Below are positions 12,335 to 17,437 of a stretch of DNA of 64,000 nucleotides, in pieces (the first letter of the stretch is position 1; each line of letters starts with the position of its first letter). Below the pieces are notes generated by a model, which worked only from the letters and a program-made list of their open reading frames with translations, had not been told where the DNA came from and made no database searches. The stretch spans positions 314,154,001-314,218,000 of the forward strand of contig OZ024742.1 of the NCBI GenBank assembly GCA_964016885.1, in the 5' to 3' direction. This DNA comes from Eledone cirrhosa (Eukaryota). The translations under genes were made by a program, and so were the position numbers.

Positions 12335-14342
12335 CATATATGTAAATTGATAATAGATATAATTGAAATTAGATACGGGCATAGAGACAGAGGAATAAAG
12401 GACGAGATGGTATGGAGACGATACAAAAATAGGAAAATAAAAAAAAGTAACTACTTAGTCATAGGCTGACGTTATTGCTGGTCGATTGTGGACACATAAT
12501 TATCAAACACTGTCCTGGACTATTTCCGAGGCTGTCGACAATTCATTGTAAAATGCAGTCATGAACGATAAATTAATCAGAGCAAACGAATCATAATTTA
12601 CATGAAATAGCAATGCATATTGTTCGACATTTAATTCGAACGCTGTCCTGAAGGACGTATTTCATCATTACGGAGACAAAAAACAAAATACACAGAGTAA
12701 TGACGCGGAGAGGAGAAATGCCTACGCAAAAATGAGGGGAGTTAATAGCAACCATGTCGGACATTAATGTCTAGAAAAGACAAGACACTAGAGTCACGTG
12801 ATAAAAATGGAGATAGCTGGCGGTAAAAAGTAGTAAACGAGTGAACAATAGGAGTCTGTAGATGTGTTTGGGTTTTATATTAATTGTGACTGTTGAAAGT
12901 TTTGCAAAATTTTCTCAGACACACACTGTTCCTTTCTCATATTACACACACACACACACACACGCACACACACACATACACACACACACACACGCATACA
13001 CACACACACACACACACATATATATATATATATATATATATATATGTGTGTTTGTGTGTGTGTGTGTGTGTATATATGTGTATATGTATATAATATGACA
13101 TTACGTATGTACACACATATACACGCTCACGTACGCCAACAGACATACTTACATACACACACACACATACATTCATACATACAGAAACAAACATATATAT
13201 ATATATATACATATATATATATATATATATATATATATATATATATATATATATATATATATATATATATATATGAAAGTATGTCTGTTGCTGTACGTGA
13301 GCGTGTATATGTGTGTACATATCTAATGTCACGTAATTATTATACCCTCTACAAAGGTCATGGTGCATATACAATTGCGACAGACTATGCTATATACCAC
13401 AAAACAAAGTTGGATAGAAAAATTTAACGGATAATACATCTGAATCACAGAGAACTTCCAACAACATGGATGTTTAATTGTGGAGGCTTTCTTTATATCA
13501 TAATAAAACTCTAAATCTACGATATCACGCACGCATCATAAGCAAGTAACTGATAACTTGTAAGTATAACGATCAAACGTCAAATTTGAAATTCCGGTAG
13601 TGTATACATTTAAAATTCTGACATAAGAAATGTTATAGAAACTTTCATTAAATACATTTTCCTACCGTAAAAGAAGAGAAACATTGATTCGAGTATAGAT
13701 CTAGGGATTTATTAATTCAAACGTGCTGCAAATGTCTAATGAGAAAATATGAGAAAACTGATAAAAACGTTAAAACTCAAAAGTTTTCTGTCTTCAGAAA
13801 ACACACACACACACACAGACACACACGCCCCCTCCCACACATACATACACAAGCGCACACACACACTCACACGGGCTGGTATAAATTAATTTGAGAAATG
13901 TAAATAAATTAAAGAAATATTTTCATTGAGCAAAACTCAACATGAGCTGCTCCCAAATTAATTTTTATTAAGATCTTAATAATTGTTTTTATTAATTCCT
14001 TCATCGAACCAAATTGGTATTTGTCAGACTCCCTCACATATATGTCTATTCTTGTGTGTATATATATATATAAATATACATATATATAAATGTAAGTATG
14101 TATGTATACGTACATACATATATGTATACAGACGTACAGTAGCATGCATATATGTATATATATATATATATATATATATACATATATACATACAGGTACA
14201 CATGCATATATGCACGCATCAGTTTAGCGGAGGGTTATTATAACGCCGCTTTGTTCGTTTGTAAACAAACTGAACAGCCTGAATTTATGCCATACGGTGT
14301 TAAGGCAACCACGTCACCTTTTTGTTCAACACTGACACAGGA

Positions 14343-14385
14343 ACGATGTACTAGTTTCAAGCTTGTTAGCTATCATCAGCACCGT
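14343..14385 (-). ncRNA. type I hammerhead (family A)
   Basis: acggtg CTGATGA t agct-aaca-agct t GAAA ctag TA catcgt. Stem I is 6 bp, and the base of stem II is a T.T mismatch. Confidence 0.75.
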
Positions 14386-14459
14386 ATACATATCTGCCAG
14401 ATAGTTGAACGTTCGAAAGTATATACTTTCCTTATGAAAATTAACGGCTGAGCAGCCTA

Positions 14460-14467
14460 ATTTGCAT
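14460..14467 (-). promoter_or_regulatory. octamer motif ATGCAAAT within a block conserved with family C
   Basis: Exact octamer about 88 nt upstream of the HHR core. Function is inferred only. Confidence 0.45.
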
Positions 14468-14741
14468 ATTGAGTGAGTTAAATCGGTCAGGCATACCGAA
14501 AACAATAGGTTGAAATAAAATGAAAACGAAATTTCATTTCTCACTCTTAGTATGGCACTTACTTAAATGTAAGTATGTATGTATACGTACATACATATAT
14601 GTATACAGCCGTACAGTAGCATGCATATATATATATATATATATATATATATATATATATATATATATATATATAAAAGACGTAAAATAAGAAAATTAAA
14701 AAAAAAAATTTTTTTTTAAATTTTAACTTACTTAAATTTTC

Positions 14742-14823
14742 ACTCCAACTAATTAGTTTCTGCAATGGGATAAAGACAGTTACGTAATCCAACTGTCGAG
14801 AATTCATTGCGTCATCAGGGAGT
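14742..14823 (-). ncRNA. type I hammerhead (family B, copy 1)
   Basis: actcc CTGATGA c gcaatg...gacagtt...aactgtc...cattgc a GAAA ctaattag TT ggagt. Confidence 0.8.
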
Positions 14824-15291
14824 CTATTCTCAGCTAAGTCTTCAGGCAATGCGCGGACACCGGGGACTCATAAAAATAATAATAATTCGGTAGATGGAAC
14901 AGCTAGCGGGGGCTGAATTCCATGCACTGAAATCCTCGCTGCCTCTGGTCAAATGGTCGATTCTAAAGAATCAATCACGTGACACAGAGGCTAGTCAGTA
15001 GGAATGGGATGGTAAGATGACAGACGCCTACTAACACCCCCCAAAAAAAATTTAGAAGTGGTTTTGGCAGGTTTGCTCGACAAATCAGTGATTTGGAGAT
15101 AAATATAGATAATTTAATATATCTACTAACATAAGCGCACATATGTACGCAAATGCCAGCAAATACACAGGTTATGTCATAGTATCTAGGTGGTTCAATG
15201 CAGGAGGATGCAGAACAATAATATAAAAGACGTAAAATAAGAAAATTTTTAAAAACATTTTAAAAAAAAATGTTAACTTACTTAAATTTTC

Positions 15292-15373
15292 ACTCCAACT
15301 AATTAGTTTCTACAATGGGATAAAGACAGTTACGTAATCCAACTGTCGAGAATTCATTGTGTCATCAGGGAGT
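15292..15373 (-). ncRNA. type I hammerhead (family B, copy 2)
   Basis: As copy 1, with a stem II G-C pair replaced by A-T (15312/15360). Confidence 0.8.
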
Positions 15374-15842
15374 CTATTCTCAGCTAAGTCTCCAGGCAAT
15401 GCGCGGACACCGGGGACTCATATAAAAATAATAATAATTCGGTAGATGGAACAGCTAGCGGGGCTGAATTCCATGCACTGAAATCCTCGCTGCCTCTGGT
15501 CAAATGGCCGATTCTAAAGAATCAATCACGTGACACAGAGGCTAGTCAGTAGGAATGGGATGGTAAGATGACAGACGCCTACTAACACCCCCCCAAAAAA
15601 ATTTAGAAGTGGTTTTGGCAGGTTTGCTCGACAAATCAGTGATTTAGAGATAAATATAGATAATTTAATATATCTACTAACATAAGCGCATTGATGTACG
15701 CAAATGCCAGCAAATACACAGGTTATGTCATAGTACCTAGGTGGTTCAATGCAGGAGGATGCAGAACAATAATATAAAAGACGTAAATTAAGAAAATTTA
15801 AAAAAAAATTTCTTAAAAAAATTTTAACTTACTTAAATTTTC

Positions 15843-15924
15843 ACTCCAACTAATTAGTTTCTGCAATGGGATAAAGACAGTTACGTAATCCAACTGTCGA
15901 GAATTCATTGCGTCATCAGGGAGT
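15843..15924 (-). ncRNA. type I hammerhead (family B, copy 3)
   Basis: Same motif as copy 1. Confidence 0.8.
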
Positions 15925-16395
15925 CTAATCTCAGCTAAGTCTCCAGGCAATGCGCGGACACCGGGGACTCATATAAAAATAATAATAATTCGGTAGATGG
16001 AACAGCTAGCGGGGGCTGAATTCCATGCACTGAAATCCTCGCTGCCTCTGGTCAAATGGCCGATTCTAAAGAATCAATCACGTGACACAGAGGCTAGTCA
16101 GTAGGAATGGGATGGTAAGATGACAGACGCCTACTAACACCCCCCAAAAAAAAATTTAGAAGTGGTTTTGGCAGGTTTGCTCGACAAATCAGTGATTTGG
16201 AGAGAAATATAGATAATTTAATATATCTACTAACATAAGCGCATTGATGTACGCAAATGCCAGCAAATACACAGGTTATGTCATAGTACCTAGGTGGTTC
16301 AATGCAGGAGGATGCAGAACAATAATATAAAAGACGTAAAATAAGAAAATTTTTAAAAAAATTAAAAAAAAAAATGTTAACTTACTGAAATTTTC

Positions 16396-16477
16396 ACTCC
16401 AACTAATTAGTTTCTGCAATGGGATAAAGACAGTTACGTAATCCAACTGTCGAGAATTCATTGCGTCATCAGGGAGT
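16396..16477 (-). ncRNA. type I hammerhead (family B, copy 4)
   Basis: Same motif as copy 1. Confidence 0.8.
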
Positions 16478-16905
16478 CTATTCTCAGCTAAGTCTCCAGG
16501 CAATGCGCGGACACCGGGGACTCATATAAAAATAATAATAATTCGGTAGATGGAACAGCTAGCGGGGGCTGATTCCATGCACTGAAATCCTAGCTGCCTC
16601 TGGTCAAATGGCCGATTCTAAAGAATCAATCACGTGACACAGAGGCTAGTCAGTAGGAATGGGATGGTAAGATGACAGACGCCTACTAACACCCCCCCCA
16701 AAAAAAAAAATTTAGAAGTGGTTTTGGCAGGTTTGCTCGACAAATCAGTGATTTGGAGATAAATATAGATAATTTAATATATCTACTAACATAAGCGCAC
16801 AGATGTACGCAAATGCCAGCAAATACACAGGTTATGTCATAGTACCTAGGTGGTTCAATGCAGGAGGATGCAGAACAATAATATAAAAGACGTAAAATAA
16901 GAAAA

Positions 16906-17437
16906 TTTTTTTGTTCAACACTGACACAGGAACGATGTACTAGTTTCAAGCTTGTTAGCTATCATCAGCACCGTATAGCTATCTGCCAGATAGTTGAACG
17001 CTCGAAAGTATATACTTTCCCTATGAAAATTACGCCGCTTTGTTCGTTTGTAAGCAAACTGAACAGCCTGAATTTATGCCATACGGTGTTAAGGCAACGT
17101 GGTGACGTGGTTGCCTTAACACCGTATGGCATAAATTCAGGCTGTTCAGCTTGTTTACAAACGAACAAAGCGGCGTTATAATAAGCGTCCGCTAAACTGA
17201 TGCGTGCATATATGTATGTGTACCTGTATGTATATATGTATATATATATATATATATATATATATATATATATATATATATATATATATATATATATATA
17301 TATATATATATATATATATATGCATGCTACTGTACGTCTGCATACATATATGTATGTACGTATACATACATACTTACAGTTAAGTAAGTGCCATACTAAG
17401 AGTGAGAAATGAAATTTCGTTTTCATTTTATTTCAAC
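16906..17437. repeat. rearranged family A pieces: two direct fragments (16906-17098) followed by an inverted copy (17101-17437)
   Basis: 16906-17031 matches 14319-14443 and 17032-17098 matches 14243-14309. 17101-17437 is the reverse complement of family A sequence. Confidence 0.85.
16932..16974 (-). ncRNA. type I hammerhead (family A, second copy)
   Basis: Identical to 14343-14385. Confidence 0.75.

Follow-up and report, generated by a model that had tools for sequence, protein, structure and literature searches.

A composite insertion of two hammerhead-ribozyme repeat families in a TA repeat of Eledone cirrhosa

Structure of the insertion

The window is a stretch of 64,000 nucleotides from Eledone cirrhosa (GenBank assembly GCA_964016885.1, contig OZ024742.1, positions 314,154,001 to 314,218,000 of the forward strand), numbered here from its first letter. 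In the assembly, an insertion of 3.35 kb (14087-17437) is set in a TA repeat and consists of two fused hammerhead-ribozyme repeat families, A and B. The composite structure is present in the assembly in the order (TA)n, A (one unit of 477 bp and a further 61 bp), (TA)25, four units of B, a T run, A pieces of 125 and 67 bp, an inverted 337-bp A arm and (TA)n. Its features are as follows.

14059..14086, no strand: imperfect TA tract, left target side
14087..14563, minus (RNA on minus): A1a, one full 477-bp A unit, 3' end without tail
14148-14180: TA tract inside A1a
14302..14323, minus: predicted RNA hairpin (hairpin 14302-14320, unpaired A's 14321-14323)
14343..14385, minus: A type I hammerhead, palindromic helix III, predicted cleavage after 14349 (GUA)
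14557..14568, plus: 12-nt word ACTTACTTAAAT, occurring in both families; this copy, in A, is 48 nt away from the tailed A 3' end
14564..14624, minus: A1b, first 61 bp of a second A unit, one difference from A1a
14625..14675, no strand: (TA)25, A-to-B joint, A's internal tract in phase, also the presumed priming site of B
14676..16907, minus: B array, four units (550, 551, 553 and 556 bp) followed by some 22-27 bp of a fifth
14726..14737, plus: the same 12-nt word in B1, lying 50 nt from the 3' end of B that joins TA
14742..14823, minus: B1 type I hammerhead, long helix II, palindromic helix III, GUU site
15276, 15827 and 16380: shared 12-nt word in the other B units (the last with one mismatch)
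15292..15373, minus: B2 hammerhead, compensatory G-C to A-U change in helix II
15843..15924, minus: B3 hammerhead
16396..16477, minus: B4 hammerhead
16906..16912, plus: B-to-A joint, T7 run, T5 in phase in both B and A, 3-5 T common
16908..17032, minus: A2a, equivalent to A 14319-14443, 125 bp, four differences
16932-16974, minus: sixth hammerhead, within A2a
17032..17098, minus: A2b, equivalent to A 14243-14309, jump at TAACG microhomology
17099..17109, no strand: inversion centre, made from the 14302-14320 hairpin with a short slip
17101..17437, plus (RNA sense): A3, inverted A arm, equivalent to A 14509-14563 followed by A 14087-14318, no hammerhead
17383..17437, plus: tail of 55 nt, right end only, ending 10 nt past an AU-rich hairpin
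17438..17533, no strand: (AT)48, right target side

Family A has a period of 477 bp and a GC content of 34.8%, its left piece amounting to 1.13 units from 14087. The B units (GC 37.5-38.3%) start at 14676, 15226, 15777 and 16330, with the fifth at 16886, giving 4.04 units in all; their pairwise substitutions are 1.35-1.93% with homopolymer tracts left out. Folded as circles and compared with 30 shuffles each, the A monomer RNA gave z = -9.2, a value inflated by its UA tract, and the B3 RNA gave z = -6.3. Only one stop-to-stop frame of at least 120 aa was found in 14087-17437 (16965-17432, through the TA tract), and by ORF content the insertion is non-coding; no LTR-like framing was seen at it.

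All junction positions given by the sequence-only reading, which had described an A-B-B-B-B-A concatemer, were recovered by sequence comparison: the passage from A to B is pure TA (14625-14675), the return to A runs through seven T (16906-16912), and the jump within A, at 17029-17032, uses a TAACG microhomology and lacks one base. The fourfold B holds, but the second 'A' is not a unit, being 125 + 67 bp plus the inverted arm. The palindrome that had been reported is there, with arms of 67-70 bp around 17099-17109; the inverted arm itself measures 337 bp (17101-17437) and not 70 bp, and it crosses the A repeat junction. The two palindrome arms differ from each other at 2 of 67 sites.

Both outer ends of the insertion are 3' ends of A lying in TA tracts, with a length difference of 55 nt, and TA tracts adjoin all three RNA 3' ends (14087, 14676 and 17437). 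The tail at the right end stops at a position homologous to the 3' end of a related family, C. A target-site duplication is unreadable, as TA tracts lie on both flanks and the primer side is B sequence rather than target. Another hammerhead element (17536-17870) follows directly on the right side, so this TA cluster takes repeated insertions. Three more head-to-head inversions at TA tracts are found in the window.

Hammerhead ribozymes and the shared word

A motif scan gave ten type I hammerhead motifs in the whole window, six of them in the insertion and all six on the minus strand; a type I core is predicted in all four B units and in the one full A unit. Rfam returned weak HH9 matches for the two A ribozymes, at 20.3 and 20.0 bits against a gathering score of 52, and no hammerhead match for B among 90 rows, so that the hammerhead calls rest on the motif scan. 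At gathering level the only Rfam match in the whole window is one U6 copy; rows for miRNA families at E-value level were rejected, falling mostly on TA tracts and palindromes. Elsewhere in the window no A- or B-type ribozyme was found despite 40 TA tracts, and a degenerate A/C ribozyme pattern had no match in metagenome contigs and none in viral contigs.

It had also been stated that all six hammerheads are co-oriented. This is correct for the ribozymes and incorrect for the pieces, the inverted A3 running the opposite way without a hammerhead. Co-orientation was discarded as evidence for a single event: A1 and B would agree by chance in one case of two, and the sixth ribozyme sits in the 5' piece, here inverted, of the RNA copied into the right-hand cDNA.

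The 12-nt word is the longest common to A and B, and the tail-less end of A falls within it. A match of this length was reached in 5 of 300 whole-unit shuffles and 11 of 2000 local shuffles, the word having been noticed post hoc. Judged from sequence, its placement near the 3' ends of both families fits mobilization by one enzyme. The word is absent from the window's Hydra-like Penelope-like element (PLE). Local alignment scores against the 3' UTR of this PLE, the only one in the window, were low, at 41 for B (against 26.6 ± 3.2) and 32 for A (against 24.2 ± 3.6), and may reflect the ribozyme core. The clusters matched in Atlas by the PLE ORF (50966-51853) partly carry GIY-YIG and HTH_animal; Pfam recognized no domain in it.

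Read evidence

When 936 bp were compared with sequencing runs, 4004 contigs in run X1 and 67,675 reads in run X19 were aligned, figures that express depth and not copy number, and many variant alleles were seen among them. Among runs X5-X18, which contain small shares, X5 has divergent sequences related to B and to the A ribozyme. A and B are abundant non-LTR retrozyme-like families, probably mobilized by a PLE.

Such depth bears on whether the locus could be an assembly or library artefact, either a fold-back chimera or a misjoin of high-copy repeats. Both families are extremely deep in runs of the same species, normal A continuity predominates at the 16908/17101 joint (10,006 reads in X19), none of the 24 pieces displayed out of 4143 spans a junction, and the window alleles at 16592 and 16811 have zero depth in X1. 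X1, however, contains only 0.61 of the sampled words and is therefore probably not the source of the assembly. All four B copies share alleles that are rare or absent in the runs at three sites (16515, 16568 and 16811), which marks them as locus-specific; the palindrome arms are not identical, the right end is a position conserved across the family and the window holds the three other TA-tract inversions. We consider an artefact very improbable.

Template of the B array

Among the four B copies, two 2:2 sites show mutually incompatible patterns, and there is in addition the compensatory stem change. These fit a mixed multimeric template better than one circle, and a transcript of this kind likely served as template for the array. 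The earlier proposal of circular RNAs as templates is not borne out here, the differences between B copies not being explained by a single circle. A strict dimer period was tried and rejected: column 68 and an A/T tract alternate, while columns 493-494 do not.

B starts at the TA tract with a 5-nt microhomology. In run X4, the loose ends of contigs include another B copy joined to TA within about 1 nt of the place of the B start (three contigs), and other B copies end near the equivalent of 16907. The A-to-B joint resembles the usual start of B within TA and is indistinguishable from a separate insertion.

Order of events

One rival reading is a nested history, in which a two-ended A insertion came first (1.74 units on the left and an inverted, tailed arm on the right, a classical PLE structure) and B was later primed in its second internal TA tract and attached by its far end at the T run, with about 140 bp of A deleted. 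The B start with its microhomology and the second B-TA joint in X4 suit this history, which needs no template switch to account for the flanking A pieces, the tail and the alleles in common, and the hairpin alone could fix 14318. A joint between a LINE and family C at 45965, a second cross-family joint without TA in the window, has a 2-nt microhomology; it is most simply an insertion with target deletion, and such deletions therefore likely occur here. The divergence of the B copies (0.58-0.72%) is also below that of the A pieces (1.33%; p = 0.045-0.14, the A count including three unpolarized sites), which taken alone favours later nesting.

Against nesting, the long deletion must land on one microhomology beside the inversion end, although the first 60 nt of B offer 23 positions with matches of at least 5 nt elsewhere in A, some of 7-8 nt. 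The direction of change is also contrary. The polarized changes in the A pieces (n = 9) comprise eight from A/T to G/C and none from G/C to A/T, those in B (n = 12) two and eight, respectively (Fisher p = 0.001, post hoc); with this opposite bias B does not look younger than A. At B's rate about 3.5 of the nine A changes would be expected to run from G/C to A/T (P = 0.03; 0.14 allowing one), so that A does not look older. Nesting is regarded as a minority reading, at about one chance in a few.

Three successive insertions at a TA hotspot, first A, next B and last a twin-primed A with genomic B, cut at the T run, as its internal primer, are improbable. The hammerhead element at 17536-17870 adjoins on the right, B's end has ATT, and the tested PLE protein favours ATT and AT-rich cut sites (PMC11167929); the other B copies in X4 stop near the equivalent of 16907. 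A would however have had to hit this locus twice independently, although the 40 TA tracts of the window hold no other A hit, and the cut would have to fall exactly at the T-run border. The minor alleles and the tail asymmetry would moreover be common by chance. The minor alleles common to A1a and A2a are those at 14386/16975 (at most 24% in X1, 46% in X19) and 14391/16980 (at most 0.14% in X1, 20% in X19); they adjoin a 2-nt private change, by which the read alignment may be disturbed.

A proposed two-ended, twin-primed event

The explanation that we prefer, with somewhat better than even confidence, is that a PLE reverse transcriptase primed from both sides of one break and switched from B RNA to A RNA, producing the composite insertion. 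The PLE endonuclease would cut both strands within the TA tract. The right end would prime at A's distal start site and copy A leftwards to give A3. The left-hand cDNA, after four B units, would end in B's T run, and this end would anneal to the sole A5 tract in the A RNA, immediately in front of the enzyme already copying that RNA (twin priming), with copying proceeding through the uncleaved ribozyme to give A2a. A jump back at TAACG would then give A2b, and the two cDNAs would join at the 14302-14320 hairpin.

Of what the sequence-only reading had proposed as one reverse-transcription event with a template switch, the PLE-type mobilization, the inverted terminal segment and probably one B-to-A switch are retained. 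A single continuous pass with a fold-back is not supported: the right arm carries a 3' end of its own, joined to TA and bearing the 55-nt tail, and is better read as a second cDNA from the opposite side of the break. It was considered whether A2b might be a snap-back copy of the right-hand cDNA; A2b and A3 differ twice, both times A to G, and independent RNA-templated copies fit slightly better.

The breakpoints abut, the inverted arm ending at A 14318 and the piece after B starting at 14319-14323. The B-to-A joint and the inversion centre both fall at the predicted hairpin of 14302-14323. Abutment by chance would be about 7/477 = 1.5% if the breakpoints were independent; 14318 is, however, in an arm of a hairpin at which an inversion might form its joint in any case, and the base of this hairpin is the T run, so this figure overstates the case. 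The left primer took A's only run of at least four T, though the A RNA has a long UA tract, which indicates that the primer ended in T and not TA. B's T-run end was on balance the internal primer. Also counted in favour of this explanation are the two outer TA-joined A ends differing by the tail, the homologous end of family C, the shared word, the minor alleles common to A1a and A2a, the base-change biases by which B does not look younger, and the finding of no other A- or B-type ribozyme among the window's TA tracts. Points against it are the tail, which at 55 nt exceeds the described 30-40 nt (the comparison covers two A ends and one C end), the lower divergence of the B copies, the LINE-C joint, the repeated insertions in this TA cluster and the ordinary appearance of the A-to-B joint.

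The left A piece may have opened the left-hand cDNA, which would then have made a first switch at that piece's TA tract; this reading is held at somewhat below even strength. That the piece is an earlier insertion seems rather doubtful. More tentatively, one PLE enzyme with several RNAs aboard could have acted at both break ends, the whole 3.35 kb being one event with two switches and twin priming by an enzyme recognizing a shared start signal. Across unrelated retrozyme families this signal would consist of the 12-nt word, an AU-rich hairpin and a U-rich end.

As a single locus this is a modest finding: every ingredient is already known, and the behaviour is a variation on known retrotransposons. 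The origin of tandem and inverted PLE insertions has been called an open question (available text of PMC8557442), and the retrozyme transposition cycle is still hypothetical. The locus offers a countable prediction, namely abutting breakpoints, T-run priming and the shared start word. If the twin-primed reading is true, twin priming and two-RNA insertions as known from L1 extend to PLE-driven ribozyme repeats; if the multi-RNA enzyme is also real, twin priming would account generally for the inverted 5' ends of PLEs, so far unexplained, and would let ribozyme repeats recombine into new families.

Comparison with known systems

Literature searches, judged from the listed papers in a collection without most subscription papers, gave no report of PLE twin priming or of a template-switched chimeric retrozyme or PLE insertion, and PMC9977147 adds nothing on chimeric PLE insertions.

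Like A and B, animal non-LTR retrozymes (PMC7229834; 10.64898/2026.07.22.740005) are tandem non-coding units of 35-38% GC with one type I hammerhead per unit and very many copies, for which mobilization by PLEs has been proposed. The units here (477 and about 552 bp) are longer than the 150-450 bp of PMC7229834 but within the 51-972 bp of 10.64898/2026.07.22.740005. Unlike described retrozymes, two families are fused in one insertion; 'chimer' is absent from the main text of PMC7229834, and the accessible text of 10.64898/2026.07.22.740005 describes no such case. The hammerheads resemble the minimal or palindromic-helix-III ones of PLE pseudo-LTRs (PMC4209133) in a helix I of 5-6 bp, a palindromic helix III, predicted there to need dimer formation, and an extra unpaired base before helix II; the predicted B ribozyme differs in its very long helix II extension and its GUU site.

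With PLE insertions (PMC8557442, PMC11167929, PMC3846280) the locus shares the partial tandem, the inverted 5'-truncated copy, the head-to-head inversion with a palindromic centre, an extension at one end only, the TA target, the unreadable target-site duplication and ends lying off the ribozyme cleavage site. It differs in having no ORF, a 55-nt tail and an unrelated family between the two arms. Targeting of (TA)n is known from the Hydra and Naiad PLE clades (PMC8557442), and a PLE protein cuts and extends both strands, has two internal start sites by which the tail is defined, and works on uncleaved RNA (PMC11167929). Self-priming has been proposed for PLE palindromes (PMC3846280), whereas the abutting breakpoints here point to twin priming.

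Near-abutting internal breakpoints with primer microhomology are the signature of twin priming in L1 (PMC11702581; 10.1101/2024.08.27.596794). The locus differs from L1 in having no poly(A) tail, L1 endonuclease site or readable target-site duplication, its templates being ribozyme repeats and its enzyme presumably a PLE protein. It resembles the L1 insertions of these two sources in microhomology priming beside the stop of the first cDNA and in an extra switch at the inversion, and it resembles two-RNA L1 insertions, of which nine two-transcript cases are reported, in carrying co-oriented sequences within one insertion.

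Anatomy of the composite

Re-examination confirmed the boundaries given by the sequence-only reading for the composite (14087–17437), in which families A and B, two hammerhead-bearing retrozyme-like repeats, are fused in the order A–B–A. Its parts are listed in plus-strand order; A[x–y] denotes a piece matching the left A unit.

Parts of the composite
Left edge: imperfect TA tract
14087–14563: family A, one 477-bp unit; 61 bp of a second unit follow directly
Between the A start piece and the B array: (TA)25
14676–16907: family B, four units of 550–556 bp, then the beginning of a fifth
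B-to-A passage: T7 run
Directly after the T7 run: A[14319–14443]
Reached from A[14319–14443] by a jump at TAACG: A[14243–14309]
Between A[14243–14309] and the inverted arm: centre of 11 nt
17101–17437: inverted arm, A[14509–14563] + A[14087–14318]
Right edge, after the inverted arm: (AT)48

A motif scan located ten type I hammerheads in the 64 kb, six of them within the composite and all six co-oriented, as had been claimed, on the minus strand. They have a short, palindromic helix III, a form described in PMC4209133 as needing dimers; their Rfam support was weak. The same-species run X1, which contains 0.61 of the words, probably represents a different individual from the assembly source. None of the 24 read pieces listed (of 4143) spans a junction; that the locus is an artefact was judged very improbable. 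The weights attached to this and the other readings are judgements and were not calculated.

Families A and B

Both families are non-coding and AT-rich, with well structured circular folds (z of −9.2 for A and −6.3 for B). Same-species runs contain them at very high abundance (over 936 bp, 4004 contigs in X1 and 67,675 reads in X19), and A uninterrupted across 14318|14319 is the predominant form (10,006 reads). They fit animal non-LTR retrozymes, cleavage and circular RNA being predicted properties, and are new members of this known element class, for which mobilization by Penelope-like elements (PLEs) is proposed in PMC7229834 and 10.64898/2026.07.22.740005.

A distant relative of A, family C, lies at 45965–47060 (plus strand; local score 214 versus 27–52 for ten shuffles). 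Here a hammerhead repeat of 466 bp occurs in 2.35 copies, 99.5% identical, with ribozymes at 46255–46299 and 46721–46765. At the 3′ side the array ends in TA, and its 5′ end is joined head-to-head, via 2 nt, to the 5′ end of a 5′-truncated minus-strand LINE (44439–45966).

A and B have ACTTACTTAAAT as their longest common word, which lies 48 nt (A) and 50 nt (B) from the TA-joined ends. Shuffling whole units gave a common word of this length in 5 of 300 trials and local shuffling in 11 of 2000; the likeness was spotted post hoc. The tail-less A end falls within the word. A single enzyme may thus serve both families, which would make switching between their RNAs plausible. The broken PLE at about 50750–52177 (plus strand; 5′-truncated and interrupted) has YRDD, CxCx5C, CxxC and CxH motifs, features listed in PMC8557442 for the (TA)n-targeting Hydra clade, together with a 3′ UTR that contains a hammerhead-like motif, and a (TA)n end. 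The common word was absent from this PLE, which is therefore no demonstrated partner of A and B. The 3′ end of this PLE recurs alone as a 150-bp copy at 10608–10759 (minus strand), which terminates at almost the same position.

Probable twin priming and B-to-A switch

All three RNA 3′ ends adjoin TA tracts. The right end of the composite (17437) lies 10 nt beyond an AU-rich hairpin, at the homologue of the family C end. The purified PLE protein of PMC11167929 cleaves both strands and extends them, initiates at a pair of internal sites bounding the tail and uses mostly uncleaved RNA as template. A single long reverse-transcription pass closed by a terminal fold-back had been proposed; since 14087 and 17437 are both A 3′ ends, differing by 55 nt and both in TA, the right arm is better explained as a separate cDNA, which would have been primed at the right side of the break.

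The right arm ends at A 14318 and the post-B piece starts at 14319–14323. Such abutment has a chance of about 1.5% if the positions are independent, which they are not, because the T run is the base of a hairpin that alone could set the inversion point. L1 twin-primed insertions are described as having internal breakpoints a few bases apart and microhomology at the internal primer (PMC11702581; 10.1101/2024.08.27.596794). The putative primer here is the T run of B, set on the sole T≥4 tract of A, which the predicted fold places next to a hairpin and leaves partly unpaired. Nascent B cDNA is a likelier primer than a genomic end in TA, because the latter would have annealed to the long UA tract of A. 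The right-side break end would prime A cDNA leftwards, with copying stopping at A 14318, while B cDNA ending in the T run would anneal to the T≥4 tract and extend into A. Since the piece copied after B runs through the ribozyme site, the A RNA that served there would have been uncleaved or circular. A twin-primed event with a B-to-A switch is the reading that we favour, with some confidence.

One event or several

The cross-family switching proposed earlier is thus probable for B-to-A. The A-to-B joint sits in the TA tract of A itself, and B starts there much as other B copies apparently do (a loose end in run X4, three contigs); a switch on nascent cDNA ending in TA would look no different from a new insertion at a genomic TA tract. 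One event is favoured by the tail asymmetry between the A ends, by the finding of no further A or B ribozymes near the 40 TA tracts in the window and by two minor alleles common to the full left A unit and the A piece after B (16908–17032), on whose rarity X1 and X19 disagree. Against it count the hammerhead element abutting the composite on the right and the LINE joined directly to family C at 45965, most simply an insertion with deletion. Formation of the whole locus at once by twin priming is a serious but less than even prospect; a left A from an earlier insertion, followed by the twin-primed event, is unlikely, and three insertions in sequence are distinctly improbable.

Later nesting of B, with deletion of A, would suit the lower divergence of B (0.58–0.72% versus 1.33% for A). 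This is poor evidence for a younger B because the change spectra are opposite (p 0.001, post hoc): private B changes run from G/C to A/T in 8 of 12, resembling ordinary decay, and polarised A changes from A/T to G/C in 8 of 9 and from G/C to A/T in 0 of 9, three further differences that could not be polarised being left out. Such nesting was considered doubtful.

Alleles at 16515, 16568 and 16811 are common to the four B copies and rare or absent in the runs, so the copies come from one source. Over 519 columns they differ by 7–10 substitutions; two sites split 2:2 in mutually incompatible patterns, and the second copy has a compensatory change in helix II. A circular-RNA template had been suggested, but fourfold copying of a single monomer circle does not yield these differences unless conversion followed; the better fit is a transcript made from an older array. 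The differences may also be assembly error in repeats.

Other elements in the window

The hammerhead element at 17536–17870 (minus strand; ribozyme 17768–17823, AUA site) lies between TA tracts and does not clearly resemble either A or B. Also between TA tracts, 18949–19698 holds a direct repeat of about 120 bp at 624-bp spacing, like a 1.2-unit partial tandem, in which the motif scan found no hammerhead. Besides the composite, three head-to-head inversions at TA tracts were seen. The inverted element at 55139–55780, flanked by two TA tracts, has head-to-head arms of about 300 bp, roughly 5% apart plus a 16-bp indel, which may reflect distinct RNA templates at its two ends; it resembles 52254–52914 and 10845–11018. 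An insertion chain with intervening TA tracts (49941–53001) includes palindromes (50089–50140, 52210–52253) and inverted pairs (50432–50501/50633–50702, 52876–52914/52963–53001).

A broken non-LTR retrotransposon (40513–45966, minus strand; RVT_1 match) forms a tandem pair, a long copy with a 5′-truncated copy directly upstream, about 92% alike; its C-terminal motif we take to be an R4/Dong-like restriction-like endonuclease. Transposase gene fragments with inverted ends (57591–58491 and 39767–40153; HTH_32 match) are presumably mariner-like. A SINE-like repeat of 190–200 bp is interspersed over 555–57135 (about 20 or more copies, 85–96% alike), with head-to-head pairs at 2584–3008 and 21563–21862. 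Two diverged copies of 350–410 bp (61391–62590; 69% alike) both have a (TGTA)n tract in front of them and are followed by a palindrome (62493–62545), and a diverged U6 snRNA copy (63138–63245, minus strand; 55.5 bits) is probably a pseudogene.

Comparison with known insertions

Among the papers listed by our literature search, none was on twin priming, extra switches or two-RNA insertions in PLEs or retrozymes; all three are on record for L1 in PMC11702581 and 10.1101/2024.08.27.596794. For PLE insertions, PMC8557442 describes a frequent inverted truncated copy, with a 30–40 bp tail at one end. Inversion is a standard feature of PLE insertions, and it is present in the composite too.
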